A stretch of DNA of 64,000 nucleotides from a virus. Positions 2,388 through 55,606 of this stretch are shown here, one piece after another. Both the position numbers and the translations under genes were made by a program. Below the pieces are notes generated by a model. It saw only the letters and a list, made by a program, of their open reading frames with translations, was not told where the DNA came from and searched no databases. Positions within the stretch are counted from its first letter, which is position 1. Each line of letters begins with the position of its first letter. The stretch lies in the IMG/VR virus record IMGVR_UViG_3300029793_000467. One strand, written 5' to 3'.

Positions 2388-2410
2388 TGTGGTTGATTCC
2401 AGTATAACAA
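2388..2410 (-). promoter_or_regulatory. conserved promoter element (weak variant)
   Basis: TTATACTGGAATCAA in gene orientation. Confidence 0.35.
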
Positions 2411-2419
2411 GGAAATGTT

Positions 2420-2824
2420 TCAAATTTGGCTTTTACATAAATTCCGACGCCAACGGGCGAAATATATCCAAGCCGGAATGTCGGCGGAAACCGCCGCCAC
2501 ACCAATCAAGCCAGTCAGAATAGGTCGGACAATCATATCCTCTGGTTCCGAAACCGGCATGAACCAGAGAAGCGGCACCGTTCCAGCCAAGAAAACAATA
2601 CTTACGGCGAGCATGACGAATAGCATGACCTGTTCTATGGGATGTTTGGGTTTATCTGTTTTAGTCCGCGACCTTTTGATTTTTGGCGGCTTACCGTCAT
2701 GCTTGCCATGTCTGCCATACATGGTGGTCTCCCTGTTGTCTGGATGGCTGGACGCCATGCGTGTGATGGACGCGGGGTCGATGACGGTGGTGAGTTCCCC
2801 GGTGTCTTCTGATTGTGGTTTCAA
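2420..2824 (-). CDS. hypothetical membrane protein (TTG start)
   Basis: The conserved promoter element (2841-2863) lies inside the long ORF. An AGGGAG RBS sits 5 nt before TTG 2824. Two TM helices. Confidence 0.45.
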   Translation of the reverse strand: MKPQSEDTGELTTVIDPASITRMASSHPDNRETTMYGRHGKHDGKPPKIKRSRTKTDKPKHPIEQVMLFVMLAVSIVFLAGTVPLLWFMPVSEPEDMIVRPILTGLIGVAAVSADIPAWIYFARWRRNLCKSQI

Positions 2825-2840
2825 AAATACTCCCTCTCTA

Positions 2841-2863
2841 TGTAGATAATCCCAGTATAGTAC
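2841..2863 (-). promoter_or_regulatory. conserved promoter element
   Basis: rc TACTATACTGGGATTATCTACA. Confidence 0.45.
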
Positions 2864-2970
2864 GTGATAGTACATAGTTTTTTCTCGCGCATCACAAAAC
2901 GGATAGTCAAAGTCGATAACAGAAAGGAGCGTGTCCAAAAACGCGCTCCTTAAAAACAAGCCAACAGACA

Positions 2971-3471
2971 CTACCAGTCGATGAGCATGTCGCCGTGGAC
3001 GATTTCTCTCGCATACTTAATCAGGTCGGCGTCCGATTCGACACTGGGGTCGTCCACCAGCCTTTTCAGAGTGTGTAACACCGCTTGCTCGTATCCTTCC
3101 CAAAACTCTTTCGGAAGATATTTGCTCCAAAAATATTCCCCCATGAAAGCCACGCAGGGTTTGCACATTCGGACTATTGGAATATGCTCTTTCGGAGCGT
3201 TCTCGTCTCCCATGGTGAGGAATTCCAGATAAACGTACTTTTTATCCGCTTTGAAGAACAGAATGTTCTCTTTTGCTGGATTAGGGTCGCCTTCCAGTAC
3301 GAAGTCCGGGTCTCCGAAATGCATCCCGAATACGATTCCAGCATCGTAATTGTTGAGCCGATTGACGCAATCGCGGAGTGCTGAACTGTTGCATCGACAC
3401 CAGTTCGGATAATCCGATAACGACACCTCGCATCTGGTACATGCGGGGCATTCTTTTTCTTCGTTTTCCAA
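2971..3471 (-). CDS. Cys-rich hypothetical protein (CPACTRC..C.C, CKPC)
   Basis: ORF 2971..3504. TTG 3471 with an AGAGGA RBS avoids overlap with the upstream gene. Multiple CxxC pairs suggest a zinc-binding protein. Confidence 0.4.
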   Translation of the reverse strand: MENEEKECPACTRCEVSLSDYPNWCRCNSSALRDCVNRLNNYDAGIVFGMHFGDPDFVLEGDPNPAKENILFFKADKKYVYLEFLTMGDENAPKEHIPIVRMCKPCVAFMGEYFWSKYLPKEFWEGYEQAVLHTLKRLVDDPSVESDADLIKYAREIVHGDMLIDW

Positions 3472-3487
3472 TATTATTCCTCTCTTT

Positions 3488-4486
3488 TTAGATAGCCGTT
3501 TCAAGCAGAACCGGGGGAAGGCACTGTTTCCAATTGACTCGCAACGCGCTCGTCAAATCGTTCATGTTCAATGCGAACAGTCCGGAATTCATCAAACCGT
3601 TCAATTCCACGATTGACACTTCACCGTTGATAAGACACAGGTCGAGCGTGTACGCGCCGTAACCGCAGTGGGCGAACATGCGTCCGGCTCGCGTGGCGAA
3701 CTCACGGTATCGTTCCGCCAATTCCGGTCTGAGTTCAACATTCTTAACGGTGGTGTCGTCACGATGCTTCTGCATTTGAGGGTCGAATCTCGTATGCATG
3801 TTGTCGATTGGTGTTTTCAATCCGATATTGCCAGCGCCGCAGACAGGCTGGTTGCCGACCATGAACATGCGATACTCGTATTGGATATCGACATTCTCCT
3901 GAATAAGCAGAGCATTCGGGTCATCATCCGCACGAACAAACGCCCAACCTCCCCACTCCTGCACCTGCTGTTCAAGCTCGTCAAGATTAGTTCCGGAGAT
4001 TTTCAAATTCGGTAGCATTTTGGCTTGGTTCATGAATTTGATGAAGAACGACGAGACACCGTCCTTAATAAGAGAAGCGAACGCATGTTTGATGTCATCC
4101 TCGTAGATGGAACTGAGTTTCGTCTTCCGATGCATGAGCATGCGCACGTTGGGATTGATGGCGTAACGGTCGGCATGAGATGGGTCTGCATACTGGTCGA
4201 TTGGCGGCATGTTCAACACTTGTCCGAAGTGCGGTAATCCGATTAGCCTCTTCGAGTCGAGGTCGGTTTTCCCATGCACTCGGACTATGGCGTCCTCACC
4301 TAGATTGCGGACGCCCCAGTAGAGTCGGGAACAGGTTTCAATCCAATCCTCACGGTCTCCACCTTCCGGCTTGACCTTGCCGACGTACTTTTCCCATATT
4401 TGAATGTAATAGTTAGGGATGCCGGTCATGTCATCGGGGCATTTGACGGGTGGAATGGAAATGACCCACGGTTTCCTATCGGTCAA
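3488..4486 (-). CDS. ATP-grasp-like protein
   Basis: 332 aa. The C-terminal region (CGYGAYTLDLCLINGEVSIVELNGLMNSGLF) resembles an ATP-grasp catalytic tail. TTG start with an AAGGAG RBS. Confidence 0.4.
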   Translation of the reverse strand: MTDRKPWVISIPPVKCPDDMTGIPNYYIQIWEKYVGKVKPEGGDREDWIETCSRLYWGVRNLGEDAIVRVHGKTDLDSKRLIGLPHFGQVLNMPPIDQYADPSHADRYAINPNVRMLMHRKTKLSSIYEDDIKHAFASLIKDGVSSFFIKFMNQAKMLPNLKISGTNLDELEQQVQEWGGWAFVRADDDPNALLIQENVDIQYEYRMFMVGNQPVCGAGNIGLKTPIDNMHTRFDPQMQKHRDDTTVKNVELRPELAERYREFATRAGRMFAHCGYGAYTLDLCLINGEVSIVELNGLMNSGLFALNMNDLTSALRVNWKQCLPPVLLETAI

Positions 4487-4680
4487 TCTATAGCTCCTTT
4501 TCGAGTATTGTTGGCGTATTCGATTCCAGCCTTGAAAGCTTCCACCGCGTAGTCGTGGAGTATTTCAAGCTGTCTGAGACTGAACCCATCCTCCAAATGC
4601 GGGGACAGGTCGGGTAGGTTTTCTTCTATCGTCTCTTCCGACATGTTGGAGATATTCAATTCGCCACTTCTTTGTTTCAT
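4483..4680 (-). CDS. small acidic hypothetical protein
   Basis: The start is uncertain (ATG 4680 or 4644). The promoter element at 4690-4710 lies inside the longer ORF. Confidence 0.3.
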   Translation of the reverse strand: MKQRSGELNISNMSEETIEENLPDLSPHLEDGFSLRQLEILHDYAVEAFKAGIEYANNTRKGAID

Positions 4681-4689
4681 CCGGCGTTT

Positions 4690-4710
4690 GTAAACATCCC
4701 CAGTATAACA
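4690..4710 (-). promoter_or_regulatory. conserved promoter element
   Basis: rc TGTTATACTGGGGATGTTTACA. Confidence 0.45.
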
Positions 4711-4779
4711 AGACATGAATGATATGAAAGACGAAACAGGGGTCTGCACACAAAAGTAAGCCCAGACCCCTATTCGACA

Positions 4780-5835
4780 TCAAAGACCGTGCTTGGTCAG
4801 ATACTTGTTGTTGATGATTTTAAAGCAACGGTTGCTGCCAAGCTCGTTGTACAGGTCGTCGCTCAACCGTTCGCCCGCTTTCGCATGCCAGACGATTCCT
4901 TCGTCCAACAAGTCGCGGGTCACGTTGCCTCTCAGACCATCCACTTTGGCAATCATGTCCATCACATCGCCGGTCGGCTTCCACTCGGTCTCGTCTAACA
5001 GTGGGACGGCGTTGTCAAGCATGGCTTTCGGCCAATCCCTACGGTCGAGTTTCATGTTGTCACGCCATACGGCGAACACGAATGGACGATAGGACGCCAG
5101 CTTCAACCTGTTGCCGTTGACACTTGGGCCGCACAGCTCGAACTGGCAGACCATGCCTTTCTCCAACGCGTCAACCAATCCGGTTTTCACCGCCACCTGC
5201 ATGTTCGTGCATTCCGGCTTCAACTCCCAATTGCGAGAGTAGACGTGAACCGTATCATCCATATCACGGTAGATTGTGGTGCTGGTGCCGTCCACCTTCA
5301 CGGTCGGAGTCCACGCAATCCGCCTGATTTCATCCCAATACGCGGTGAGATTCTGCACTCGTGTGGCGTCGGACTTGGAGCATGGCGCGTTGAAAGCGCC
5401 AATCATGTCACCGCCTTTCAATGGTGGCAGTTCTTCATACTTCCACACGTCCGCCTGTAAGGTGATATCAGTGCCGATGGGAGTGTCCTCCGGTACGCCA
5501 ATCGTTGAAAGCGGCATGACTAGTCCTTGACTGTACACTCCGCGCAGTCGCGCGGTACGTAGCACGTGTCCGGTGATTTCCTTCTCTTCGCCGGTAATCG
5601 TGTTGGACACGGGAACGGTACGCTGACCACGCTTCTGCAAGTCCGTATAGCGTGGGTCGTTGGCTGGAAGCATGGAATCGATTTCGAAATATGCCACATG
5701 GTCGCCGGGCTTTAATCCCATGTCCTTGCCTACTACGACAATCCATCCGCCAATGCGAACCTTCTCGATACGGTCTGCGTTCTCAATGGGATACACTCCC
5801 TCAATCTTTTGAACGCTCACCATTTTTCTAACCAT
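4780..5835 (-). CDS. ATP-dependent RNA ligase-like (nucleotidyltransferase KxDG motif)
   Basis: 351 aa. KVDG (ligase motif I) is embedded in TPTVKVDGTS. The overall architecture resembles the Rnl/DRB0094 RNA-ligase family. AAGGAAAAC RBS. Confidence 0.5.
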   Translation of the reverse strand: MVRKMVSVQKIEGVYPIENADRIEKVRIGGWIVVVGKDMGLKPGDHVAYFEIDSMLPANDPRYTDLQKRGQRTVPVSNTITGEEKEITGHVLRTARLRGVYSQGLVMPLSTIGVPEDTPIGTDITLQADVWKYEELPPLKGGDMIGAFNAPCSKSDATRVQNLTAYWDEIRRIAWTPTVKVDGTSTTIYRDMDDTVHVYSRNWELKPECTNMQVAVKTGLVDALEKGMVCQFELCGPSVNGNRLKLASYRPFVFAVWRDNMKLDRRDWPKAMLDNAVPLLDETEWKPTGDVMDMIAKVDGLRGNVTRDLLDEGIVWHAKAGERLSDDLYNELGSNRCFKIINNKYLTKHGL

Positions 5836-5897
5836 CAGGTTTTCCTTTCTAACAGTAAGAGGAGGGAAGCCGGTATCGGCTCCTCCCCGAAAAAATG

Positions 5898-6785
5898 TCA
5901 GTCCTTGTCAGACAGTGGGGTCAACCGCAACGGGAACTGTTCCTCCAGTTCGAGGGCGATAAGAACCCTTTCGTCCACCGGAACATCATGTGAGGCCAGC
6001 TTGTCCAGCAAAGCCGACAGGCTGGAATGACCTCCCAGATGATACTGTTTGCCACGATACTGTTCCGGCAATGCCACGGGAGTGCGATGCTCCTTGCTCC
6101 ACGGTTCGCTACGCAGAACATCCAACGTGATGGGAGTGTTGGATTCTTCCATCTTGCGACGCGCGTTCCAATACGTTTCGTCGCACTGGTAGCGGCATTC
6201 CGGAACATCCACCTCATACTTTCCATCCTTGTAACGGATGACCGTCACATAGCCGTAAATGTGGGAGTCCTCCTCCCATGGTGTGTAGATGAGCGTCTGA
6301 TAATCCAATTCGTCGTACATCTGGTCGAGACTGACGTTCAAGTAGACGGACAGAAGCCTGACGGTGCCGAAGGAAGCGTGTTCGAGCGCACGCTGGTCGT
6401 GGCTCCAACGGTTGATATCCTCGACAATCTCGTCCACCGGCTTCAACTGTTCCGGGTCAAGGTCGCGGATTTCGTCAACGGAATACGAATCGTATTCGTC
6501 GCATGCGATTTCCTCGGCAAGCTCACGGACGGTCATGCCGCTGGTTGCGAGAATGGTTTTCAGCCCAGACTGCGTGTCGTGGCAGAGCGGACAGCCACAG
6601 TATTGGATGTTGCGCAGATTGCGCATCAACTCCGTGTAATCCTTGCCGGTCGCATAATGGGTGCCGTCCGGCATGGCGTATCCGGGCTTCAAATGGGCGC
6701 GAAGCCCATCCTTGGTCTCCTGCGGGATGGTGTCGGAAACGTATTTGGCGTTCTCTCCGATAATCTGCTTTTCACTGGTGTCCAT
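5898..6785 (-). CDS. hypothetical protein (295 aa)
   Basis: Long ORF with a GAAAGG RBS and the same codon bias as its neighbours. Confidence 0.5.
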   Translation of the reverse strand: MDTSEKQIIGENAKYVSDTIPQETKDGLRAHLKPGYAMPDGTHYATGKDYTELMRNLRNIQYCGCPLCHDTQSGLKTILATSGMTVRELAEEIACDEYDSYSVDEIRDLDPEQLKPVDEIVEDINRWSHDQRALEHASFGTVRLLSVYLNVSLDQMYDELDYQTLIYTPWEEDSHIYGYVTVIRYKDGKYEVDVPECRYQCDETYWNARRKMEESNTPITLDVLRSEPWSKEHRTPVALPEQYRGKQYHLGGHSSLSALLDKLASHDVPVDERVLIALELEEQFPLRLTPLSDKD

Positions 6786-6793
6786 AAAACGGT

Positions 6794-7066
6794 TCAGCCT
6801 TTCTTCTCGCCGGTTTTCTTGGTGGACGTTTTTCGGGTTTTCGGTGGCCTGTGGAATTCAAGAACGTTTTCCTCATTCAAGGATTTGCGTTGCAAGGTCA
6901 TGACGGTTTTATGCGTGCGCATGCAATGCTGGCAGATGACCAATGTTCGAGCGTATGAGCATCGACCGTGACCGCCTGTTTGGACGACGGAGATGATGTA
7001 CTTGTAGCCGGTGTCCAAGTCGGTGACTCTTCCGCACAACATGCACGTGTATTTGGAACAAATCAC
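6794..7066 (-). CDS. small zinc-ribbon protein (CxxC..CxxC)
   Basis: Motifs CMLCGR..CQHC. The start codon is uncertain (GTG, ATT or ATG). Confidence 0.35.
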   Translation of the reverse strand: MICSKYTCMLCGRVTDLDTGYKYIISVVQTGGHGRCSYARTLVICQHCMRTHKTVMTLQRKSLNEENVLEFHRPPKTRKTSTKKTGEKKG

Positions 7067-8968: not shown

Positions 8969-9222
8969 CCCAGTCCTTTCTGAGTCCTTAAGAGTTCGTC
9001 CAGTTTTTCCTCGATGCTTTCCAACCTCAAGCGCAACGCCTTCTGGCTTTCGTAGATGGCCGCAACCTCTCCTGAGACTTCGTAGAGGGTTTTGTTGCCA
9101 TACATGTCATGCTTCTTGTCGGCCTGTTTCTCAAGCTTCGCTATCTCCTGCTCCCGTTGCGACGGTTTGCGTGATTTCAGATAGTCCCTGCATTCGGGAC
9201 TGAACATGTCCTCGTATCCCAT
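8965..9222 (-). CDS. coiled-coil hypothetical protein
   Basis: 85 aa, charged, and translationally coupled to the neighbouring genes. Confidence 0.4.
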   Translation of the reverse strand: MGYEDMFSPECRDYLKSRKPSQREQEIAKLEKQADKKHDMYGNKTLYEVSGEVAAIYESQKALRLRLESIEEKLDELLRTQKGLG

Positions 9223-9807
9223 TTAGCGGCCAAATTCCTCTCTGCGCATGGCTTCATACAGCATGTTCTCCTGAGTTGCGTCGGACAAGGCACGATGCTC
9301 TTCCACGTCACCGATACCATAGTCGCGGATAAGCACGGCAACCTTATGGCTTGGCTTTTCGGGATGGATTTTCCGGCTCATTTCCAACGTGTCCACGAAC
9401 CGGTGTGGAAAGAAGAACATTCCACCGTTCACGGTTTTCATGGCCGCGTCCAAGAAACTCAAATCGAATGACGCGTTATGCGCCATGATGATGGTTCGCG
9501 GGCCAAGCCACTTGTCGAATCGGATGATGGCTTGGCTTACGTCGGGTTGTCCGATGACCATGCTGTCGTTGATTCCGGTGAGCGAGGTGATGTATTCGGG
9601 GATTGGCTGGTGTGGGTCAATCAGTTGCTCGTATCTGTCCACGAGTTTCCCGCCATGGATTTTCACAGCTCCGATTTCAATGAGTTTGGCCCCGTTTTCA
9701 GGTTTGAAACCGGTGGTTTCGGTATCCAAGACCACGTAATCGTAGAGTGGTGTCTTCATTGGGTCGATTCTTCTGGGGTCTCGACTTTGGTATCTGTCCC
9801 AGCTCAT
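9223..9807 (-). CDS. DnaQ-like 3'-5' exonuclease (DEDDh, Pol III epsilon family)
   Basis: Exo I motif YVVLDTETTG, Exo II motif HNASFDLSFL and Exo III motif HRALSDA are all present. GAGGAG RBS. Confidence 0.8.
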   Translation of the reverse strand: MSWDRYQSRDPRRIDPMKTPLYDYVVLDTETTGFKPENGAKLIEIGAVKIHGGKLVDRYEQLIDPHQPIPEYITSLTGINDSMVIGQPDVSQAIIRFDKWLGPRTIIMAHNASFDLSFLDAAMKTVNGGMFFFPHRFVDTLEMSRKIHPEKPSHKVAVLIRDYGIGDVEEHRALSDATQENMLYEAMRREEFGR

Positions 9808-11016: not shown

Positions 11017-11472
11017 CTAAGCCAGCGTCCCGTTAAAAAAGAACTCCCTCTTCCCAACCCGATACAAACCCACATACGAACCGGACAGACGAAAACCAAA
11101 AAGACGGAAGAAACCCTCATACACCGGTAATAATTCCTCCGGCACTGTCACCAGAGGGAACCGTTCATCCAGCAATCCCAGTGAATATTCGACCAGTGCG
11201 GAACCGACCCCTCGATTTCGGAAAGCCTTGGAAACATACAAGGTGCAAATCTTCCGTTCAGACGGATTTCTCTTGAGAACGCAAAACCCCGTCAACTCAC
11301 CGTTTATGCGGGCTAAAAGAATCGCGCGGCCTTTCCCCAATGAGGGGAGAACCGTGCGGTCGAACCAAATATCGAAGCCGGGATAATACGTTCGGATTAT
11401 CCTCGGAATAGGAATAGAAACCGCAGTTTGAGCGTCCCGGACTAAGTCAATCCTTAAAGAACTCAAACACAT
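11017..11472 (-). CDS. GNAT family N-acetyltransferase
   Basis: Acetyl-CoA binding motif in VSKAFRNRGVGSALVEY (R-x-x-G-x-G/A). Confidence 0.65.
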   Translation of the reverse strand: MCLSSLRIDLVRDAQTAVSIPIPRIIRTYYPGFDIWFDRTVLPSLGKGRAILLARINGELTGFCVLKRNPSERKICTLYVSKAFRNRGVGSALVEYSLGLLDERFPLVTVPEELLPVYEGFFRLFGFRLSGSYVGLYRVGKREFFFNGTLA

Positions 11473-11739: not shown

Positions 11740-13380
11740 GTGGCGTGAAGAAGAAAAATCCCCTTCCCCACCGTTTTGCCGTGAGGGTGCCCCCGCCTTT
11801 AGGCGCGGGGAGGAATCACAGCTTTCTTTTTTCCATATTACGCGTAATGTGGTATTATTAGAAATATGAGCCAGAAAGTCGTGTTGGAGCGTGTGACGTT
11901 GGACGGTGCCAAACCGTTCATCGGTTATACCGGCCAGCATGACCCATGTTCCGAAAAGCTTTACGCGAATACCGGCAGTCAGGCGATGGAATGGCTTTGT
12001 GACGCTTGGCGTTACCGGTTCAACCAGTTAAGGTCGAACCGTTGCAAATACGGTAAGGACAAGACTCTCATCCCCATTGGCGGCACACCCGACACTCGTA
12101 GCGTCAGCCAGTCCCGAAGCGAATGTTCTTGGCTAACCGCAGTGCCTTCCCTTATCTTGGAATCCCCGACCAGAATCGAACGGGTCGAATGGTTCACCTC
12201 CGTGAAACGACGCAAGACCCTATTAAGCAAACGGTTGAAACCGGGGAGAATGCCCCGTTTCAAATCGTATAAGCGTGACGGGCAACGTTTCGTCTGCTGG
12301 TACAACGGGGGACGCAACGCCGTATACCGTCGAGTCAACCGCAACCACGGCATCATAACCATCACCGGACAGAACCCCAAAGGCATGTCATTGCCGGGCG
12401 AACCGTTACGCTACCGTATCCTCCTGCACGTGCGCGTCAGCCAGCCGATACGCGAATACACGGCCATCCAAGTGGATTGGACGAACCGTACCGTCGTGTT
12501 CAACAACATTCCAACGCCCATCAGTCATGAGCCGACCGGCAGGGCGGTCGGCATCGACCGTGGATGCGTGCATGCCGCCGCCGACTCCGACGGACGGTTC
12601 ATGGACCTGCCGAAAGACAGGTTGAAGGCCATCGACCGTGAAATCCGGAAGCGTCAGAAAAGCCAAGCCCGTAGGGTCAAGACAGCCGGATATTCCAGTG
12701 AGAAAGAATACGCGAATAGTGGCAGAACCAGCCGCGCATATTGGAAGACCCGGCTGGAAATCACAAAACTGCATTCGAAATCCGAACGTATATTGGATGA
12801 CGTGTACCAAAAATACACGACCCAACTCGTGTGTGACAATGATTTGATTGTGTTGGAGAACCTACGATTAGCGAACATGAGCCGACGCAACAAGCCTGTT
12901 CCCGACCCGTTGCATGAAGGCAGGTATCTTCACAATGGTCAGGTGGCGAAACGTGGACTCAACCGTAGCCTCCGACAGGCGAGCATGGGAAGACTGTCCT
13001 CCATGCTCGCATACAAGACCAAGCTTGCCGACGGCGTGGGCATGATACTCGTCAACCCGGCCTACACAAGCCAGACATGCAGTCAATGCGGGTATGTGGC
13101 GAAAGAAAACCGCGAGAGCCAAGCGGTGTTCATTTGCAAAAAATGCTCGTACAAGACGAACGCTGACGTGAACGCGGCGAAAAACATTCTCAAACGAGGA
13201 TTGGACACGCTCGCCGTCACGTCGGAAAACCTGTGGGGCGCGGACGGCACCCCGGTCGAACAGGGACGTAAGACCAACGGAAACGCTACACGCGAATCCG
13301 TGGCAGTCTCTTAGAAACCAGAACCTCTCCTACCGCAAAACGATAGGAGGAATCCCCCGGTTTAAACCGTGGGGAGGACG
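11740..13380 (+). mobile_element. IS200/IS605-family TnpB-only (IS1341-like) insertion sequence
   Basis: A single tnpB gene is flanked by subterminal hairpins (11789-11810 and 13354-13375). A GGAGGAATC word sits next to both hairpins. No TnpA gene is present. The insertion breaks the minus-strand gene array. Confidence 0.65.
11866..13314 (+). CDS. tnpB: TnpB (OrfB_IS605) RNA-guided nuclease-like transposon protein
   Basis: 482 aa. C-terminal RuvC-like region with a zinc finger (TSQTCSQCG...CKKC) and NADVNAAKNILKRG. Confidence 0.85.
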   Translation: MSQKVVLERVTLDGAKPFIGYTGQHDPCSEKLYANTGSQAMEWLCDAWRYRFNQLRSNRCKYGKDKTLIPIGGTPDTRSVSQSRSECSWLTAVPSLILESPTRIERVEWFTSVKRRKTLLSKRLKPGRMPRFKSYKRDGQRFVCWYNGGRNAVYRRVNRNHGIITITGQNPKGMSLPGEPLRYRILLHVRVSQPIREYTAIQVDWTNRTVVFNNIPTPISHEPTGRAVGIDRGCVHAAADSDGRFMDLPKDRLKAIDREIRKRQKSQARRVKTAGYSSEKEYANSGRTSRAYWKTRLEITKLHSKSERILDDVYQKYTTQLVCDNDLIVLENLRLANMSRRNKPVPDPLHEGRYLHNGQVAKRGLNRSLRQASMGRLSSMLAYKTKLADGVGMILVNPAYTSQTCSQCGYVAKENRESQAVFICKKCSYKTNADVNAAKNILKRGLDTLAVTSENLWGADGTPVEQGRKTNGNATRESVAVS

Positions 13381-15154: not shown

Positions 15155-16009
15155 TTAGCCGTGCAACGCGGTGATGATTTCGTCAGCGGCCTTACGGACA
15201 TGCTCGGCAGTGGAGCGTACAAGCTTGGGGTCAGCATCGCTCCACCCCGCCACGTAGCGGATGGAATACTCGCCGGTGTCCATTCCCATGTATCTAGCCA
15301 CCACATAGGCGACGCTTTCTGCCTCGGTCTCGTAGATGCCGCGATGCCGACCGTATTCACCTTCCGGCAACCCCTGATGGAGGAGCATGTGGGCCGTTTC
15401 GTGCAGGATGGTCTTGGCGTCCTGCCTCGGACTGTTCTTCGCGTTGAGTATGATTCGTCTGCTTCCATCCATCGTGGTGTAGCCTTTGACGTCCCTTCCC
15501 ATCGACTCATGGCCCACCCGCCAATGTTTGGATTCGAGCCAAGCGGTCATACGTCCGACGAGGCCGAGTACGTCTGCGCCTTCAAGCTCGGACGGCTTCA
15601 TCTGTTCGATGGGGTCGGTCTCCTTGTCGATGGGGTCGGTCTGGGACACGTCGAACACCGTCAAGATGGGATACCAGACTTTTTGGATAGGGTCGCCGTT
15701 CTCGTCTAGCTGTGGGTTGCCGTCTTCGTCCTTGACGGTTCTGGCGCTGAATCCGAAGATTTTCATACCGTGTTCGCCTTTGCGCACGACGCGCCCGCGC
15801 GTCTGCCATTGGCGGAATCCGGCGACCAGCGACGAGTTGCCGTTCGATTGAATGAGCATCAGCAGGATGTTGTTCCAGCTGTATTGGTGGAAACGTCCCA
15901 TGAAATCGAGGTAGCGCTGCCAAGTGCCGGAGTCCCGTAGTTCCTTCACGCCGGTTTCGATGTCCTTGCGCAGTTCCTCGATTCGTTCCCTGTGTTGCTT
16001 GTCTGCCAT
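15155..16009 (-). CDS. ardC: ArdC-like anti-restriction protein (N-terminal ssDNA-binding domain + C-terminal zincin-like metalloprotease)
   Basis: N-terminal motif WQRYLDFMGRFHQYSWNNILL (DUF1738-like). C-terminal HExxH motif LHETAHMLLH. This architecture is typical of plasmid leading-region ArdC. Confidence 0.7.
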   Translation of the reverse strand: MADKQHRERIEELRKDIETGVKELRDSGTWQRYLDFMGRFHQYSWNNILLMLIQSNGNSSLVAGFRQWQTRGRVVRKGEHGMKIFGFSARTVKDEDGNPQLDENGDPIQKVWYPILTVFDVSQTDPIDKETDPIEQMKPSELEGADVLGLVGRMTAWLESKHWRVGHESMGRDVKGYTTMDGSRRIILNAKNSPRQDAKTILHETAHMLLHQGLPEGEYGRHRGIYETEAESVAYVVARYMGMDTGEYSIRYVAGWSDADPKLVRSTAEHVRKAADEIITALHG

Positions 16010-23690: not shown

Positions 23691-25070
23691 CTACTCGGCG
23701 TCCTGCATGGATTTTCCGGCGGCATGTCCGGCGACGACGCTGTTCAGCAACGCTTTCAGGTCGATGCCCAAGGATTGCGACAAGCCTTCGCTCAACTGGC
23801 TCACACTGTTCACGGTGTCACCCACGAGCTTCGTGCTGTTTCCGTCGCCGTACATGGTGATGTGGTCAACCTTGGTGAGCGGTTCGGCGGCTGCTCGAAT
23901 CATGTCGGGGAGAATCTGAATGTACTGTTGGGCGAGGATGTACGTGTTGTTCATCGCATTGTAGGCTTGGCCTTGGGCGCGGATTGCCTCGGCTTCGCCG
24001 ACACCCTTCGCCTGTGCGGCGGAACCCTCGGCCTTGCCTTTGACCTCGGTCGCGTGTGCGTCCGCGTCGGCTGTGGATTGGATGGCCTGAGCCTCCTGCT
24101 GGCGTAGGTACAGTTCCGCGTCGGCGTGTTTTTGGGTTGTGTACATTTGCGCGTCGGCCTGCTGTTCGGCGGCGTAACGGTCGGCGTCGGCCTTCTTGCA
24201 GATGGTCGCGTTCAGTTTTTGCTCTTCGATTTCAGCGTTCTTCTGTTCGAGCACGGCCCTCTTCTCGGCGGCGGCGATTTCAGCCTCCTGCTCCTTGACC
24301 TTGAGGGTCTTGGACTGTTCGGCGCTGGTGATGCCCTTCACCGCGTCTGCTTCGGCCTGCGCCTTGTCGGCGATGGACTGGAGTTCCGCACGCTTCAGGT
24401 CAAGCTGGTTCTGGCGGACGGCCACATCCTGTTCCGCGTTGATGGACGCGAGTTTCGCGTTTCGGCTGATTTCCGCCGCCATCTCCGCGCCCATGTTGGC
24501 GATGACGCTTTGCCGGTCGGTGAAGTCCTGAATGTTGAACGTGGTCAATTGCAGTCCGAGCCGTTCCATGTCCACACGCGCGGATTCGGCCACGGTTTCG
24601 GCAAATGTGTCCCTGTTCTCCATCAGTTCCTTCAACTCGGTCTTGCCGATGACCTCGCGAAGCTTACCTAGGAGCACCTGAGTGACGTCCTTCTCCATGC
24701 GCTCCTTGGACTGGTTGAGATAGTTCTTGGCGGCGTTCTCCAACGCTTTGACCTGTTTGCCGTTCTCGTCCACGGTCGTGGTTTCCGACGCTATCTGGAA
24801 GTTCGCCACGGCGTTCACGTCGATGAGGATGGCGTCCTTAGTGGGAATCGCCGTATCGGTTGACAGCAGGGATTGCACCGCACCCAAGCTCAGCCAGTCC
24901 ACGCGCATGATGAACGGGATGATGAACGCGCTTCCGCCTGAGACGAAGCGTCTTCCGCCCGGCCCGGTGATGACCATGACCTTGTTGGCGGGGCAGACCT
25001 TGTAGCTTGCGGTTGCGAGCAGTACGACAAGTACTGCCACTACCGCGCCGATAATGAGTGTTGTCGGCAT
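23691..25070 (-). CDS. SPFH/band-7 (flotillin/YqiK-like) membrane protein
   Basis: N-terminal TM helix, an SPFH domain (VMVITGPGGRRFVSGGSAFIIPF..), then a long Ala/Glu/Gln-rich coiled coil. AGGAAAAAC RBS. Confidence 0.75.
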   Translation of the reverse strand: MPTTLIIGAVVAVLVVLLATASYKVCPANKVMVITGPGGRRFVSGGSAFIIPFIMRVDWLSLGAVQSLLSTDTAIPTKDAILIDVNAVANFQIASETTTVDENGKQVKALENAAKNYLNQSKERMEKDVTQVLLGKLREVIGKTELKELMENRDTFAETVAESARVDMERLGLQLTTFNIQDFTDRQSVIANMGAEMAAEISRNAKLASINAEQDVAVRQNQLDLKRAELQSIADKAQAEADAVKGITSAEQSKTLKVKEQEAEIAAAEKRAVLEQKNAEIEEQKLNATICKKADADRYAAEQQADAQMYTTQKHADAELYLRQQEAQAIQSTADADAHATEVKGKAEGSAAQAKGVGEAEAIRAQGQAYNAMNNTYILAQQYIQILPDMIRAAAEPLTKVDHITMYGDGNSTKLVGDTVNSVSQLSEGLSQSLGIDLKALLNSVVAGHAAGKSMQDAE

Positions 25071-25119: not shown

Positions 25120-26460
25120 TCAGACTTCGGTTCCGAAGTCTGCGGCCATGTCCGCGAACTTGGAGCATTCGCCCATGAACGCGAGATTGAACGTGTCGGT
25201 CGGACCGTTGCGATGCTTGGCGAGAATCACGTCGGCTTCGCCCGGACGTTCCTCACGGTCGTAGTATTCGGGACGGTGCACGAGGAACACCATGTCGGCG
25301 TCCTGTTCGATGGAGCCGGATTCACGCAGGTCGGACAGTTCCGGCTTCTTGTCAGCACGCTGTTCCGCATTACGGTTCAACTGGGAGAGCACGACCACGG
25401 GGCATTGCAGTTCCTTGGCGAGCATTTTGCATTGGCGGGAGAAGTTCGACACTTCCTGCTGACGGTTCTCGACGGTTTTACCGGAGGACATGAGTTGCAG
25501 GTAGTCGATGACGATAAGCTTCAACCCGTTGACCTTGCGGCTGAGAGCACGGCATTTCGCACGGATGGTGCTCATGTTGATGATGGCGGAATCATCAACC
25601 CACAATGGTGCCTTCTCGACCTGATGGCAGAGCGCGTTGAGTTTGTTCCAATCATTCGAGTTCAGATTCTCGGGATGTTGGAACGATGCGAGACGGATGC
25701 CTGTTTCGGCTGCGAACATGCGTTGCATGAGTTCGTGACCGCCCATTTCCAGACTGAAAATCACAGTCGGCAGACCCTTGTGCAGTGCGGCGTTACGCGC
25801 GAAATCCATGCCGAGAGTACTCTTGCCCATGCCCGGACGGCCCGCGACTATGACCATTTGTCCGGCTTGCAATCCGTGCGTCAACGCGTCGATGTCACGG
25901 AAGCCGGTGGGTGTTCCGAACTCGTTCGGATTCTGTGACATTTCATCCAACTGTTGGAGCATTTCGTCGGACAGGCGGTATGCGGTCTTCAACTCGTCGT
26001 CTTCGGAACGGCTTGAATCCTCCAACGAGAACGCGGCCTCCAACGATTTGCTGAGCACATCTTCGGCTGACGCGTCGGATACGTTGCTCATCTGTTGCAA
26101 CTGCTGTCCGACCATGTTGATGTGGCGGAGGATGGCCGCGTCACGAATCTGCTTGATGAAATAGTCACTGTTGTTCGACGTGGGCGCGGAGCCGACAAGC
26201 TGGGCGATGTAGTCGATGCCGCCGACCTGTTCCAACTGTCCGTTGTCCATCATGTGCGAGGACAGCATTTGCGCGTCCACACGGTTATTGTCTGCGGCCA
26301 GTTCCTTTATATTATGGAAGATGGTCTGGTTGGTCGGCTGGTAGAAGTCCTCTTCGGAAAGTTGGCTGATGACCTTGTCCAACGTTTCCGCGTCTTGAAG
26401 CATGGCCCCCAACAATACTTGCTCGGCCATGTCCTTGTGGATTGGTGTGGGGACGCTCAC
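25120..26460 (-). CDS. dnaB: replicative DNA helicase DnaB
   Basis: 446 aa. Walker A GRPGMGKST, Walker B LIVIDYLQLM and the characteristic DnaB N-terminal domain. Confidence 0.9.
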   Translation of the reverse strand: MSVPTPIHKDMAEQVLLGAMLQDAETLDKVISQLSEEDFYQPTNQTIFHNIKELAADNNRVDAQMLSSHMMDNGQLEQVGGIDYIAQLVGSAPTSNNSDYFIKQIRDAAILRHINMVGQQLQQMSNVSDASAEDVLSKSLEAAFSLEDSSRSEDDELKTAYRLSDEMLQQLDEMSQNPNEFGTPTGFRDIDALTHGLQAGQMVIVAGRPGMGKSTLGMDFARNAALHKGLPTVIFSLEMGGHELMQRMFAAETGIRLASFQHPENLNSNDWNKLNALCHQVEKAPLWVDDSAIINMSTIRAKCRALSRKVNGLKLIVIDYLQLMSSGKTVENRQQEVSNFSRQCKMLAKELQCPVVVLSQLNRNAEQRADKKPELSDLRESGSIEQDADMVFLVHRPEYYDREERPGEADVILAKHRNGPTDTFNLAFMGECSKFADMAADFGTEV

Positions 26461-38121: not shown

Positions 38122-40782
38122 ATGGGTAATCCGAACTGGTATCAGATAACCAGAACGTTGCAACAGTTAGACCCGGACGAGCAACGTTCGAAAGTGGAGA
38201 GCATTCCCGCCGAACTGGATGGTTGCACCCTTCTCCTCATCAAGAAGGGCGAGGAGCCGGTCAAGGAATATATTTACGGCGACGGCGAGGGAATCGTCAA
38301 CGCCGGACAGTTGGCTGGTTTTGACGCGAGACTGGTCGAAGGTGATGAGGAACCGGTGTTGCCGGATGGCGTGAACAGTGCGGCGCATCCTCTCATCCCG
38401 TTCCGTGCCCGGTTGAACTCGAAAAGCAACATGGAGAAAATGCGGACGAACTATTCCGGCGTTCGTACAAGCATCGAGAAGGTCATGCCGCCGGACAGTT
38501 ATGTGAGCGTCACGCTTCGCAATCAGGGATACTTCGAGCAGATTCGTATTCGTAATTGGATTAGCGACGAATACAATGCGGTCGAGGATTCAAGCGAACT
38601 TGCTTCGACCAACACGATGTGCGCCCGTGTGAGTTTCGGTTGCCGTCAGGTTTCGCGTAACCGACAGCTTGCGCAGAAGATTGGTCAAATCATCTGCCCG
38701 CTCATATCCAACATGTCCAGTCATGCGAGCCGTCCGAAATTCGGTTTGCTGTTCGTCAGCATGCTGTTGGAAGTGTTGTCCGTGATTTGGAGTGTGTGCG
38801 GTCTTGCAAGAGGATACGTGATGGATGGCGTGTTCCCATTGTTCCATTCCGCTTGGGGTTTCGGAATCGCGCTTCCACTGCTTGCGGTGACGTTGGTCGT
38901 GTTCCTGTTCCTCATGCTGTTGTCGTGCATTCCGTTCGTTTACATTCCGCGACCTCAGATTGCTGGTGGAGCGGTGGCGCTCATGCTTTACCTGCTGTTG
39001 GGGTTGCTTCCGCTTCCGACGTTCATTCCGATTCTTTTCGTTCCGCTTCTTGTCTTCGCGTTCATCCGTTGGAAGAATTGGACGTTGTGGGATGATATTT
39101 TCCAAACGCCACGCAGATATTATGCGATTGCGAACGACCGTGGCGCGAACGAGTCCGATAATCAGACCCGTCTTGGCGTGCGCACTCATAAGGAGCGCGT
39201 GTCGGCTTATGGTGCGCAACGTACCACGTTGATTCTTTCCCCGATTATCGTAAGTTCCGTGTTCACTCCGGTCACTCAGGGAGTGGCGATGAAACAGGAG
39301 TTGCATCCGGTTCCGGAAGTATTGTCGCATGATGGCATCTTCCTTGGGAAGGATGATACGGGACGTAACTGTTATCTCGACCCGTCGCAATTGTTCGGCG
39401 GTATCGCCATCAACGGCGAGGCCGGTTCCGGTAAGACCGTGCTCACCCATGGCATCAGCCAGTGGGCCATCAGCGCACGCGAGACCACCAGTCCGAAAAT
39501 CTGGGGACGCGACTCCCGTATCATCCATTTTTGGATGAAGGATGATACCGGTGTTAACGTGTTGGAACGTTATCGCAAACGTCACGGTTTCACCAGTCCG
39601 CAACGCGTCGTCTATTTGGCAGACCCGAACAGTGTGTGCTTGGACATGCTTGGCATGAAGGACGGGAACAATGCGATGGAGACTGCGGCGAGCGTGGCGA
39701 AGACCATGCGTTACTCGTTCGATGACGGTGATATTCTGAACGACTCGCAGAACATCATCACCCAAGCGTTGACCATCGGCGTGGCGGTTGACCGTTACGT
39801 GCAGGAGGAGCGTAAGCATAATCCCGAATCCGCGAACAAGGATTGGGAAAGCGAGATTGTGAAACGTTGCCATCAGCTCGAACAATCGTATCCGGGTGCG
39901 GAACAGTTGCGAATGCAGTTGAGTCCAATCGGATGGGCCGTCGTCGCATTATGCGGTTCCGACGGTCAGGCCGGTTCCGCGAAAGCGTTGGGTCATGTGT
40001 GCCGCGCGTTGAGCATGGAATTGAAGAGTGGCTACATGTTCGAGGAGATGACGTATGCCGCCCGTGCCGCCGAGCAATTATATGGCCGTCCGGACGCGGC
40101 TGGTCATACGGTTCGTTCCGACCGTGACATTCTCGCCAAGACGAACGCCTCGTTGAACAAGGTGAACCAGTTCCTTCCCATCGAACACATGTTCACGGCA
40201 CGTCGCGGCAAGGTGACTTGGACGAACATTCTCGACCATGCTGGCGATTATCACATTGTGCTCGCACCGCATAATGGTTATTCGTTGCCGGAACGTATGG
40301 ATAAGATTCTCGGCGGCTGGCTCATGTACCGTTTCTGGAATACGGTGTTCGCGCATTGCAAGGATTGGGACAAGGCTGGCAAGTGGACGATGCTCGTATG
40401 CGACGAGTTGAGCCTGTTGGCTAACGGCAATGACGGTATCATGCCCGCGTTGCGTGAGCAGGGTCGTTCGTTCGGTCTTCTTCTCGTGTTCGCCACCCAG
40501 TATCCGACCCAGTTGTCCGACGCGATGTTGGATTCGTTCATCGGCTATTCGACGTTCATCACATACAATACGACGATTCCGCGTATTGCCGATATGACGG
40601 CGAAACGTTTGACGAACAATGATGGTGAGGATGGTTGGCGTTCGGGCGCGGTGATGAATCTTCCACGTTATGCGGCGGCTGTTCGCACTCGAACCCAAGA
40701 ACAGTTGCAACCGACGTTCCTTGTTCATGTGAACGATTTCGATAACGGTTATCGCAATGGTGACATGGATGATGATGACTAG
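38122..40782 (+). CDS. membrane-anchored P-loop NTPase, type IV secretion ATPase-like (VirD4/VirB4/FtsK superfamily)
   Basis: 886 aa. 4-5 TM helices at residues ~230-340, then Walker A GEAGSGKT and Walker B MLVCDELS. Confidence 0.55.
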   Translation: MGNPNWYQITRTLQQLDPDEQRSKVESIPAELDGCTLLLIKKGEEPVKEYIYGDGEGIVNAGQLAGFDARLVEGDEEPVLPDGVNSAAHPLIPFRARLNSKSNMEKMRTNYSGVRTSIEKVMPPDSYVSVTLRNQGYFEQIRIRNWISDEYNAVEDSSELASTNTMCARVSFGCRQVSRNRQLAQKIGQIICPLISNMSSHASRPKFGLLFVSMLLEVLSVIWSVCGLARGYVMDGVFPLFHSAWGFGIALPLLAVTLVVFLFLMLLSCIPFVYIPRPQIAGGAVALMLYLLLGLLPLPTFIPILFVPLLVFAFIRWKNWTLWDDIFQTPRRYYAIANDRGANESDNQTRLGVRTHKERVSAYGAQRTTLILSPIIVSSVFTPVTQGVAMKQELHPVPEVLSHDGIFLGKDDTGRNCYLDPSQLFGGIAINGEAGSGKTVLTHGISQWAISARETTSPKIWGRDSRIIHFWMKDDTGVNVLERYRKRHGFTSPQRVVYLADPNSVCLDMLGMKDGNNAMETAASVAKTMRYSFDDGDILNDSQNIITQALTIGVAVDRYVQEERKHNPESANKDWESEIVKRCHQLEQSYPGAEQLRMQLSPIGWAVVALCGSDGQAGSAKALGHVCRALSMELKSGYMFEEMTYAARAAEQLYGRPDAAGHTVRSDRDILAKTNASLNKVNQFLPIEHMFTARRGKVTWTNILDHAGDYHIVLAPHNGYSLPERMDKILGGWLMYRFWNTVFAHCKDWDKAGKWTMLVCDELSLLANGNDGIMPALREQGRSFGLLLVFATQYPTQLSDAMLDSFIGYSTFITYNTTIPRIADMTAKRLTNNDGEDGWRSGAVMNLPRYAAAVRTRTQEQLQPTFLVHVNDFDNGYRNGDMDDDD

Positions 40783-50858: not shown

Positions 50859-51884
50859 ATGGCTAAGAAGAAAGGCGGAATGTCCGCCGGTTCCCTGCTT
50901 GGCGGCATTCTGGTCGTGTTGACGGCCATGGTGCTCATCGTGAATCTTGGATTGTGGACTCCCATGTCGAAGATTTTCGGATTGCCGGAAATCAACAGTC
51001 TATCCCAGTTGATGCCGGGTGAGGATTCCAAGGTGAAGCCGGATGTGAAATTAGGGTTGAAGGAGCCTTCCTTGAAGTCGTCCGGCTCCAATTCGCAAAC
51101 CAATACTCCAGAAGCCGCAGAAACGCCCTCAGAAACGACGCAGACACAAAATGGGGACAATTCCTCAAGTCAAGCACAAAAAGCCTCCACAAGCGTTCCT
51201 GAAGGTGCTTTAAGCCCTATCAGCACGAAACAGGCGCTTGACAAACTCGCTGACATCGAAACCGCAACCCCGCACACCAAAGGATACAATCGCAAAACCG
51301 ACTTCGGCACATGGCAGAACAGCAACCAGCTCTGCGGATACGGCACCACCCGCGACTACATCCTCAAACGCGACATGACCGACGTGACCATGGACAAGAA
51401 CTGCAAGGTGCTCACCGGCACCCTCCAAGACCCATATACAGGCAATGCCATCAAATTCCAGCGCGACACCTACGAGACCGTCAACGGCAAACAGAAGAAA
51501 ACAGGCGGAGACAGCATGGCCGTCCAAATCGACCATGTGGTGGCTGTCAACGACGCTTGGGCCAGCGGACTGTGGAAGGACTCGCGCAAGGGCGACCGCA
51601 TCACCTATGCGAACGACCCGGAAGTGCTCGTCGCGTCCGAAGGAGAAGCGAACAACATCAAACAGCAGGGCGTGAACCTTGTTAAGGACGAGGCGTTGAA
51701 CGGTTCCTCGACCAAGTGGAAGGACGCAACGCCCAGCATTTGGCTCCCGTCCAACAAGACGTACCAATGCTCGTATATGGCTAAACGCGTGTACATCAAA
51801 GACAAGTACAAACTGTCCATGAGCAGTTGGGAAAAAGCCGAAACGAAGTCGTTCCTCACGCAATGCGTGGCCGACGGGAACTGA
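50859..51884 (+). CDS. membrane-anchored extracellular DUF1524/HNH-like nuclease candidate
   Basis: N-terminal TM helix, a Ser/Thr-rich linker, then TATPHTKGYNRKTDFGTWQ..CGYGTTRDYILKRDM..IDHVVAVNDAW, which resembles the DUF1524/GmrSD-C His-Me finger. Confidence 0.45.
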   Translation: MAKKKGGMSAGSLLGGILVVLTAMVLIVNLGLWTPMSKIFGLPEINSLSQLMPGEDSKVKPDVKLGLKEPSLKSSGSNSQTNTPEAAETPSETTQTQNGDNSSSQAQKASTSVPEGALSPISTKQALDKLADIETATPHTKGYNRKTDFGTWQNSNQLCGYGTTRDYILKRDMTDVTMDKNCKVLTGTLQDPYTGNAIKFQRDTYETVNGKQKKTGGDSMAVQIDHVVAVNDAWASGLWKDSRKGDRITYANDPEVLVASEGEANNIKQQGVNLVKDEALNGSSTKWKDATPSIWLPSNKTYQCSYMAKRVYIKDKYKLSMSSWEKAETKSFLTQCVADGN

Positions 51885-54209: not shown

Positions 54210-54653
54210 TTGGACGAACAATCCTCCACCCAACGTTTCCATATCCTCATGGCCGGTATCAGCGAAGGTGAGACCAGAATCCTCTACAACATCGAAAAAG
54301 GAAGGTTGACCGCCGACATCCTCAAAAGCAACATCGGCAGACGACTGCTGGATGCCGGACTCATCCGACGTAACGGACAATCAGCCCCATCCCTCACCAA
54401 GGATGGCATGCGCCTCGTATCCATGCTCGCCCAAGGCGAGGCAGACCGTCCAATCCGACTATACGAGCGCAACAGCGAAACACTGCTCCGCCAAGCCGGA
54501 CAGGGAACGGCCAACGCATACAAGGCCGGTTTCGAAAACGCCGCCGTCGAACTGCTGAACGACAAGCTGGTTCACCTCGACATCGCAACAGGCGCTCTGA
54601 CGCTGCTCCCTGCGGGACGAGAACTATTGGAACGACTGGAGCAGACGTCTTGA
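54210..54653 (+). CDS. hypothetical protein (147 aa)
   Basis: ORF. Confidence 0.4.
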   Translation: MDEQSSTQRFHILMAGISEGETRILYNIEKGRLTADILKSNIGRRLLDAGLIRRNGQSAPSLTKDGMRLVSMLAQGEADRPIRLYERNSETLLRQAGQGTANAYKAGFENAAVELLNDKLVHLDIATGALTLLPAGRELLERLEQTS

Positions 54654-55606
54654 AGCCTTGGTTCCAAGACGACACGCTGACGCTCTATCTAGGCGACGCA
54701 TCGTCCGTGCTTTCCGATTTGCCCGACGGAAGCGTCGATTGTATTGTTACCAGTCCGCCGTACTATGGGTTGCGCCAATACACGGATTCCGAACTGGAAA
54801 TCGGGCGCGAACCCACGCCCGACGGCTATGTGGAAGACCTCAGCAAAGTATTCCGCGAATGCAGACGAATCCTAGCCGATGACGGCACATTCTGGCTGAA
54901 CTTGGGTGACACGTACTCCACGCCGAACCTATGGGACGGCGGCGACGGGTCGGAGAACAGCATCGGATTGCACGGGCATGTGCAGAAGCCGAACGGCAGG
55001 AAACGTCCAGACCGTCCGGCGAAGAACCTGCTCGGCATCCCGTGGAGAGTGGCGTTCGCCTTGCAGGACGAGGGGTGGATACTGCGTTCGGATATTATTT
55101 GGGGGAAAACCAATCCCATGCCGGAAAGCGTTAAAGACCGTCCAAGCAAAAGCTACGAGCATATTTTCCTATTCTCCAAAACCGAAAAATACTATTACGA
55201 CTACCAGTCCGTAAGACAACGGCAGTCGGAGAAAACCATCGAGGATTTAGCCCACCGGCATACGTTCGGCAACAAAAGCACATACGGTGGCGTCCGCGAG
55301 GATTTGGGAAGAGACCGTAGGGAATACGTCTCCCCGGACGGCAGGCGGAACCTACGCGACGTGTGGATGCTGCCGACCCGCCCGTATGCGGGAGCGCATT
55401 TTGCGACTTTCCCGGTGGATATTCCCCTCACATGCATTCAAGCCGGTTGCAAGCCGGGCGGCGTGACGCTCGACCCGTTCAACGGTTCCGGCACCACCGG
55501 TTTGGCGGCTGCGATGCTGGGGCGCAGGTATGTCGGAGTCGATTTAAACGAACAATATTTGAAATTGAGTCTGCAAGACCGTCTGAATCAGCCCGCGTTC
55601 GTATAG
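54650..55606 (+). CDS. DNA methyltransferase (N6-adenine/N4-cytosine, beta class), orphan
   Basis: Motif IV TSPPYY lies upstream of motif I DPFNGSGTTG. No restriction endonuclease partner is present nearby. Confidence 0.85.
   Translation: MKPWFQDDTLTLYLGDASSVLSDLPDGSVDCIVTSPPYYGLRQYTDSELEIGREPTPDGYVEDLSKVFRECRRILADDGTFWLNLGDTYSTPNLWDGGDGSENSIGLHGHVQKPNGRKRPDRPAKNLLGIPWRVAFALQDEGWILRSDIIWGKTNPMPESVKDRPSKSYEHIFLFSKTEKYYYDYQSVRQRQSEKTIEDLAHRHTFGNKSTYGGVREDLGRDRREYVSPDGRRNLRDVWMLPTRPYAGAHFATFPVDIPLTCIQAGCKPGGVTLDPFNGSGTTGLAAAMLGRRYVGVDLNEQYLKLSLQDRLNQPAFV

Follow-up and report, generated by a model that had tools for sequence, protein, structure and literature searches.

The window analysed here is a stretch of 64,000 nucleotides from the IMG/VR virus record IMGVR_UViG_3300029793_000467, and the locus of interest in it is a run of tightly packed, co-directional minus-strand genes that begins with an RNA ligase and passes through a small open reading frame (ORF), an ATP-grasp protein and a Cys-rich protein into a further ORF at 2971-2420 (ORF list; Table 1). 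An earlier note, based on the letters and the ORF translations, had read ligase, ATP-grasp enzyme and Cys-rich protein as one RNA-repair module that counters host defenses; its three ORFs are all found on the minus strand, at the coordinates it gave, and the KVDG motif of the ligase was correctly placed (residues 180-183). The note overlooked the small ORF, whose stop codon and the start codon of the ATP-grasp gene overlap in TTGA. Independent gene callers predicted the same genes on sister contigs; the Cys-rich ORF has 177 residues in full, or 166 counted from the ATG at 3471. A PADLOC run returned zero matches, and nucleotide searches with positions 2400-6900 against phage and plasmid collections gave no match. 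The best explanation of the whole, and in our opinion a fairly probable one, is that the locus holds three functionally separate units that have become neighbors by chance on a megaplasmid, and that the ligase mends nicks in RNA.

Table 1. Genes and RNA feature of the ligase locus, with positions in the window.
Feature	Position	Strand	Description and basis
RNA ligase	4780..5835	-	351 aa; PF21189 + PF09414, phrog_968, PDB 5cot, TIGR02306
Hairpin and U-rich tract, candidate intrinsic terminator/attenuator	4735..4775	-	RNA fold
Small acidic ORF, accessory or N-terminal domain of the R2K cassette	4483..4749	-	Fusion in L034-L036
R2K-clade (Cdc123-like) ATP-grasp protein	3488..4486	-	332 aa; predicted ATP-dependent amide-bond (peptide/protein) ligase
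Cys-rich orphan protein	2971..3504	-	166-177 aa; two conserved CxxC pairs, putative single 4-Cys zinc site

The ligase consists of an N-terminal OB domain (PF21189, PHA02142 OB domain; residues 5-109, E 9e-21) and an RNA_ligase domain (PF09414; residues 175-320, E 7e-10), and it matches the PHROGs family phrog_968, 'RNA ligase' (E 4e-47). Its sole real match in the PDB is NgrRnl of Naegleria gruberi (5COT), with an E value of 5e-35 for the single sequence and of 1.9e-85 for a three-sequence profile, which aligns over its full length with NgrRnl residues 4-339 of 340; a PDB search using only the C-terminal 71 residues found no match, while the three-sequence profile aligned that part as well. 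Against the NCBIfam equivalog model for DRB0094, TIGR02306, the ligase scores 102.4 bits (E 2.3e-29, model positions 4-341 of 341), which is under the 151-bit cutoff; we therefore regard it as a divergent member of the family, for which the same function can only be inferred.

All the catalytic residues expected of such an enzyme can be assigned: K180 and D182 (motif I), R201-N-W-E (Ia), E233 (III), F254 (IIIa), E312 (IV) and K339 (V). In alignments with NgrRnl, whose residue roles have been described (PMC7261155), K180 corresponds to K170, D182 to D172, E233 to E227, F254 to F248, E312 to E312 and K339 to K326; the contacts to the ATP gamma-phosphate and the second metal are also kept (R159=R149, R3=R4, D53=D53, K132=K121), and every NgrRnl residue shown to contact ATP or metals is conserved in the window ligase. 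Essential in NgrRnl are the lysines of motifs I and V and the glutamates of motifs III and IV (PMC7261155). NgrRnl and the Deinococcus enzyme DraRnl (DR_B0094) define the Rnl5 family, ATP- and Mn2+-dependent enzymes that seal 3'-OH/5'-PO4 nicks in duplexes with an RNA 3'-OH strand and are feeble on single-stranded RNA (PMC4408790, PMC5397189). Like these two, the window protein has an N-terminal OB domain and a nucleotidyltransferase domain without a C-terminal appendage, aligns at full length and keeps all nucleotidyltransferase motifs; with DraRnl it also shares a megaplasmid location. It is only about 30-35% identical to NgrRnl, and its OB domain has an 11-residue insertion (residues ~75-85) relative to phage homologs and to the ortholog on pMP7017, a megaplasmid of Bifidobacterium breve. 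These alignments leave no doubt about the ligase fold, and the protein is a stand-alone Rnl5 (DRB0094 family) RNA ligase with predicted nick-sealing activity. The earlier note was thus right to see an RNA ligase in the KxDG protein; among the families it had named for comparison, DRB0094 fits and Rnl1 and Rnl2 do not, PF09511 (Rnl1-type) having no match in the window ligase and an Rnl1 hidden Markov model (HMM) built from phage neighbors finding nothing in the window.

The assignment of the ATP-grasp protein rests on weaker scores: 24.3 bits against R2K_2 (PF18299; cutoff 26.3) and 19.7 bits against R2K_3 (PF14243; cutoff 26.2), so that the two models score it about equally and it is a clean fit to neither, while eight of ten remote relatives exceed the cutoff for R2K_2, R2K_3 or both. 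As a sequence profile of the family found no match in the PDB, fold comparison was used, and this gave an ATP-grasp fold, with the protein-tail ligases LysX, ArgX and RimK as the best structural matches and Cdc123 matching too; identity to RimK, LysX and ArgX, which ligate amino acids to protein C-termini, is only 10-14%. The conserved residues are K150, K156, E204, R206, D282 and E294-x-N296; K150 is invariant in 15 sequences, down to 23% identity, and K156 in the close family only. The metal motif reads V-E294-L-N296-G, its ExN being invariant in the family, and the protein thus differs from R2K.3, whose ExGD motif (the criterion of PMC4431377) is not present. About 120 N-terminal residues are family-specific and include a GDxEDWxEQAARL motif. 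The ATP-grasp fold and the sporadic spread on mobile elements are shared with the R2K clade (Cdc123/R2K.2/R2K.3; PMC4431377), to whose two conserved lysines in the RAGNYA sub-domain K150, a strand lysine, and K156 may correspond, and whose enzymes are predicted to modify proteins during phage-host conflicts (PMC4431377, PMC7824862). What the earlier note had called an ATP-grasp-like enzyme is accordingly predicted to be an R2K (Cdc123-like) ATP-grasp protein that forms amide bonds.

The small ORF upstream of it is acidic, with a maximal length of 88 residues, of which about the last 53 are conserved; no family match was found in Pfam, PHROGs, NCBIfam or PADLOC. In three related loci, L034-L036 (L-numbers denote the related loci and contigs that were compared with the window), it is in frame with R2K as one 421-aa ORF (L034 7761-9026), and this fusion ties the two together. 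A LysW-like C-terminal carrier was considered for the small ORF and rejected, as it is fused at the R2K N-terminus in L034 and its C-terminus is not free. Small ORF and R2K form a mobile cassette of their own, separate from the ligase, which is predicted to add an amino acid or a peptide to a protein target.

That the genes do not form a conserved module is seen when the relatives are compared. Near-identical copies of the element are syntenic over the whole region and are uninformative in this respect. In L034-L036, which belong to the same element family, the neighboring genes are 85-100% identical to those of the window and the small ORF and R2K cassette 72-75%; there the cassette has its place between homologs of the genes that lie at ~14.6 kb and ~11 kb in the window, and the surrounding 8 kb contain no ligase gene. 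L033, whose ligase is 83% identical, keeps ligase, small ORF and R2K, with a HicA/HicB-like pair where the Cys-rich gene would be; L001 has an intact ligase and a TnpB insertion in place of most of the small ORF and R2K; and in L032 the R2K gene is frameshifted at its ExN motif. Further away, 8.4 kb and 17 genes separate ligase (61% identical) and R2K (33%; B7017_RS00900) on pMP7017, and the ligase of Bifidobacterium oedipodis has no R2K for 10 kb around it. When 8 kb around 67 diverse Rnl5-type loci were searched on viral contigs, R2K homologs were found at none of them.

The distribution over plasmids gives the same picture. In PLSDB the ligase occurs on only 15 plasmids and R2K on 20, with both on nine (hypergeometric P 5e-30); these nine are actinobacterial megaplasmids that share a type IV secretion system (T4SS) ATPase, and their two genes lie 9-226 kb apart. 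Among the 15 plasmids with this ATPase, 13 carry the ligase and 11 carry R2K, and the nine with both compare with 9.5 expected under independence. In this superfamily of actinobacterial megaplasmids the ligase thus belongs to the near-core genes; it is common in large phages too. With the genes relocated, lost, broken or distant in relatives, the adjacency of ligase and R2K is a juxtaposition, specific to the lineage, in which a near-core gene has come to lie next to a mobile cassette of two genes and a variable orphan.

The orphan is the Cys-rich protein, which has homologs in 11 clusters only, all within the element family of the window. A 28%-identical relative is located upstream of R2K in L038, and when this is included, conservation is limited to CPxC, CKxC, a further Cys and the C-terminal motif PKE...DP...YAR...ID. 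The AlphaFold model is unusable (predicted local distance difference test, pLDDT, 41). The gene is frameshifted in L005; in L033 its position is occupied by the genes of a HicB-like (118 aa) and a HicA-like (107 aa) protein (9094-9764, minus strand), recognized by sequence motifs. We conclude that the Cys-rich protein, with its putative zinc site, is dispensable, lineage-specific variable cargo.

Directly after the ligase stop codon comes a hairpin rich in GC (GGGGTCTG...CAGACCCC), and a tract rich in U follows it. The RNA fold of 4690-4790 on the minus strand has a minimum free energy of -31.6 kcal/mol (z -3.4), and none of 200 shuffled sequences is as stable; the hairpin is also found in close relatives, while L033 has a different sequence there. 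A simple promoter and terminator scan, in which sites were no more numerous than in shuffled sequence, overlooked it because its loop is long. We suggest that the hairpin is a candidate intrinsic terminator or attenuator that would separate the ligase from the R2K cassette.

The identical ligase protein recurs in over 1,100 assembly blocks; the contigs that carry it measure 214-230 kb and are classed as viral by IMG/VR. The window encodes an 886-aa ATPase (38122-40782) with 59% identity to a protein annotated as 'type IV secretory system conjugative DNA transfer' on pMP7017-type Bifidobacterium megaplasmids, and also ParA, a Rep-like protein, DnaB (25120-26460), ArdC, an N6/N4 methylase and an adhesin. 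The ligase is 61-63% identical, at full length, to its pMP7017-type orthologs (B7017_RS00815, WP_052791192.1, and those of B. longum megaplasmids). Species-representative genomes gave no match when scanned with the single ligase sequence, and the search with the ligase alignment found one, a 230-kb contig of B. oedipodis. T4SS ATPase, ParA, Rep-like protein and DnaB, together with the B. oedipodis match, therefore identify the replicon, despite its viral label, as an uncultured conjugative megaplasmid of the pMP7017 family, in agreement with the plasmid setting assumed before. ArdC (ArdcN and M78 peptidase; 15155-16009, minus strand) lies 9 kb upstream of the ligase on the same strand, which would fit a block for establishment or anti-restriction. 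A relaxase or an oriT, next to which a leading region would lie, was not recognized among the large ORFs of the window, and related plasmids are typed as non-mobilizable by MOB-suite, so that the leading region of the note stays a supposition.

What the ligase might do on such a plasmid is suggested by the surroundings of its relatives. On pMP7017 the order is Rep, transfer-messenger RNA (tmRNA), 20 tRNAs, three small genes and the ligase (PMC10832533); in L060 a tmRNA and 23 tRNAs end 1.1 kb upstream of the ligase; and in the Arthrobacter phage Mimi the ligase is flanked by tRNA genes. The clearest tRNA-repair-like context among the loci is that of Curtobacterium plasmid pS16 (L132, NZ_CP126255.1 480714-497730), where the ligase lies in the middle of an array of 34 tRNAs and a tmRNA, with a HAD-domain protein encoded immediately upstream. 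Among 60 diverse viral ligase loci, tRNAs are found within 8 kb in 21 and within 1.2 kb in 11, and 151 of 153 tRNAs are co-oriented. The proteins most often encoded near the relatives are Rnl1-type ligases (9 loci), calcineurin-type phosphoesterases (Metallophos; 6) and P-loop AAA_33 kinases (4). An Rnl1 ligase, a phosphoesterase and a P-loop kinase make up the classic toolkit for healing and sealing RNA ends. This agrees with a view put forward in the literature, that large phages couple tRNA arrays with RNA ligases against defenses that cleave tRNA (PMC7824862). From these tRNA, tmRNA and healing-gene contexts, we infer that the role of the ligase is most likely to reseal nicks in structured RNA.

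By homology, the ligase would react with ATP to form ligase-AMP at Lys180, pass the AMP to a 5'-phosphate and then join this to the 3'-OH of a ribonucleotide end within a duplex. In this way it may reseal 3'-OH/5'-PO4 nicks in base-paired tRNA, tmRNA or rRNA, so that translation could be kept running under nuclease attack. In the lineage of the window the ligase has no dedicated end-healing partner, and it would either be limited to ends that are already 3'-OH/5'-PO4 or be reliant on host enzymes, as expected from a window with neither tRNAs nor healing enzymes. The RNA-repair role is plausible, and because the window has neither tRNA/tmRNA nor healing enzymes it is the relatives that argue for it.

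Several observations weigh against this role. No tRNA, tmRNA or Rfam match was found in the 64-kb window, and tRNA and tmRNA are absent from the 10 kb flanks of sister contigs; pMP7017 has its ligase after a tmRNA/20-tRNA array with R2K at a distance, whereas in the window R2K is adjacent and there is no tRNA for at least 59 kb on one side. HMM and BLAST searches for AAA_33 kinases and Metallophos phosphoesterases gave no significant match in any window ORF, and Pfam found no kinase or phosphatase healing enzyme within +/-10 kb on sister contigs. The binomial P of about 2e-4 for tRNA proximity among the viral loci is optimistic, being inflated by array size and one duplicate locus. The sole physiological data for the family, those for DraRnl, favor 'ribo-patch' repair of DNA (PMC5397189). 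Lastly, and against the independence of R2K rather than this role, R2K-type genes lie less than 10 kb from RNA ligases of three types on several megaplasmids, which leaves room for a loose functional link between the two genes.

The DraRnl data point to a rival to be taken seriously, above all where a plasmid has to complete its complementary strand after transfer: the ligase might seal plasmid nicks with 3' ribonucleotides, arising as ribo-patches left by repair polymerases or as RNA-primer/DNA junctions in replication or in complementary-strand synthesis after conjugation. Rnl5 enzymes need RNA on the 3'-OH side only and accept 5'-PO4 DNA (PMC4408790), and DraRnl, itself encoded on a 178-kb megaplasmid, helps by its ligase activity to rebuild the genome of irradiated cells (PMC5397189). 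In the window, where RNA healing enzymes were not found, the ligase is in a block with a DnaQ/RNase_T-type exonuclease (9223-9807), DnaB and ArdC. We nonetheless consider this explanation rather unlikely, since homologs recur within tRNA/tmRNA arrays and as neighbors of genes for Rnl1, kinases and phosphoesterases, which points to RNA substrates, and since a ribonucleotide-incorporating repair polymerase of the LigD-Pol or PolX type was not detected near the ligase.

The loose link between R2K and RNA ligases would be accounted for if the two, together with tRNA arrays and tmRNA, belonged to loosely coupled islands that maintain translation, with R2K modifying a ribosomal protein or an EF-Tu-like GTPase and the ligase mending RNA. 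Co-directional R2K-type genes are found less than 10 kb from three unrelated RNA ligase types: Rnl5 (window and pMP7017), RtcB, and a ligase that is not Rnl5. The plasmid of Arthrobacter sp. zg-Y1110 (NZ_CP104273.1; L043, L131) has two R2K-type genes, one with RtcB at 4.4 kb and the other with an Rnl5 ligase at 5.2 kb, the protein near Rnl5 being a distant relative (HMM E 1.6e-7); the end of the R2K gene near RtcB is overlapped by a gene of the SLOG family. In Erythrobacter aureus R2K is 4.3 kb from a non-Rnl5 'RNA ligase family protein', the distance from R2K to arrays of tRNAs and tmRNA is 2-4 kb on two plasmids of Pseudarthrobacter, and L038 has an array of seven tRNAs 1.4 kb from its R2K gene. 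The predicted role of R2K enzymes as protein modifiers in phage-host conflicts and the structural matches to LysX, ArgX, RimK and Cdc123 would also fit. RimK acts on S6 and Cdc123 on eIF2-gamma, and these may serve as a comparison for the R2K target.

Order and distance are not conserved, however, and within the superfamily ligase and R2K co-occur no more often than expected under independence; other R2K loci lie among methylases, toxin-antitoxin systems and nucleases, without RNA genes, and the proximity can be explained by an island effect. We thus regard such coupling as improbable. The distant R2K neighborhoods were taken from annotated plasmids only; in relatives R2K also neighbors Lar, orphan methyltransferases and SSB, which, like the ArdC of the window, count among known anti-defense or establishment genes. 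A stronger form of the same idea, that R2K amidoligases are an unrecognized accessory of RNA-repair and translation-protection islands on megaplasmids and that the order ligase, small ORF, R2K, zinc protein in the window is its most compact form, seems to us highly doubtful; if it were true, RNA would be resealed while a component of translation is covalently modified to resist or recover from attack by a nuclease or toxin.

The reading of ligase, ATP-grasp enzyme and Cys-rich protein as one counter-defense RNA-repair unit in a supposed leading region, on the analogy of phage T4 Rnl1 and Pnkp against PrrC, is very unlikely to be correct: the tight co-directional packing, the same-strand ArdC, the R2K-type genes that have Rnl5, RtcB or a further RNA ligase less than 10 kb away on the pMP7017, Arthrobacter and Erythrobacter megaplasmids and the ligase relatives in tRNA arrays speak for it, but the adjacency is confined to one lineage, with the genes elsewhere 9-226 kb apart or alone, the ligase persists in natural variants where R2K or the Cys-rich gene is lost or broken, and a terminator-like hairpin follows the ligase. 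Both the T4 system and the window have an RNA ligase of the ATP-dependent KxDG kind that is encoded on a mobile element, and some phage relatives of the ligase do adjoin Rnl1, kinase and phosphoesterase genes and tRNA clusters; the analogy fails in that the window ligase is Rnl5 and not Rnl1, belongs to a family that seals nicks in duplexes rather than breaks in an anticodon loop, and has no Pnkp-like enzyme, that is no 5'-kinase/3'-phosphatase to heal 2',3'-cP/5'-OH ends, in the 64 kb. We also know of no end-healing chemistry for ATP-grasp amidoligases or small zinc proteins. Of the proposed RNA-repair counter-defense, then, what survives is a plausible role for the ligase, judged by the tRNA and end-healing contexts of its relatives, and not a three-gene module.

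With three separate units and a ligase that probably mends RNA as our preferred reading, a tempting three-gene 'module' is removed from the candidate anti-defense systems, and R2K with its fused partner is flagged as a separate, uncharacterized mobile cassette. The ligase family is already biochemically characterized and is annotated on related plasmids, and the R2K clade is known but uncharacterized. The physiological role of Rnl5 is still open (PMC5397189), and the ligase has near-core status on a superfamily of conjugative megaplasmids that includes very common elements of the human gut. Its repeated embedding in tRNA/tmRNA arrays, on plasmids and in phages, suggests a testable role in keeping the RNA pool of translation intact, for which pMP7017 in B. 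breve offers a tractable system.

Some further features of the replicon can be added. With no nucleotide match in PLSDB or INPHARED, the element looks like a very prevalent, undescribed lineage of gut megaplasmids. The 15 actinobacterial megaplasmids that share its T4SS ATPase measure 149-608 kb, come from Bifidobacterium, Arthrobacter, Pseudarthrobacter, Paenarthrobacter, Curtobacterium and Glaciihabitans, and are all non-mobilizable according to MOB-suite; several carry tRNA arrays and tmRNA. A second 886-aa ATPase, with a weak AAA_10 match, lies ~8 kb past the left edge of the window (L009 18742-20999); that it might be the window gene at 38122-40782, moved by an inversion, was rejected, as the two proteins are unrelated and their equal length is coincidental.

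The co-directional block of the window includes, besides ArdC, genes for the DnaQ/RNase_T-family exonuclease (minus strand), a GNAT acetyltransferase (11017-11472, minus), a DUF3310 protein (552-1124, minus) and an SPFH/Band-7 protein (23691-25070, minus); the Arthrobacter plasmid has SPFH and oligoribonuclease genes less than 5 kb from its ligase, with no pairwise homology to the window genes detected. On the plus strand are genes for a protein with a GmrSD_C-like nuclease domain (50859-51884), the N6/N4 DNA methyltransferase (54650-55606) and a 647-aa surface adhesin-like protein (60522-62465; pAdhesive_15 and Listeria-Bacteroides repeats). TnpB genes of the IS200/IS605 type (OrfB_IS605 and Cas12f1-like_TNB) are scattered over the element, for example at 11866-13314 (plus strand) in the window and at 11367-13043 in L001, and their insertions are polymorphic among otherwise near-identical contigs.

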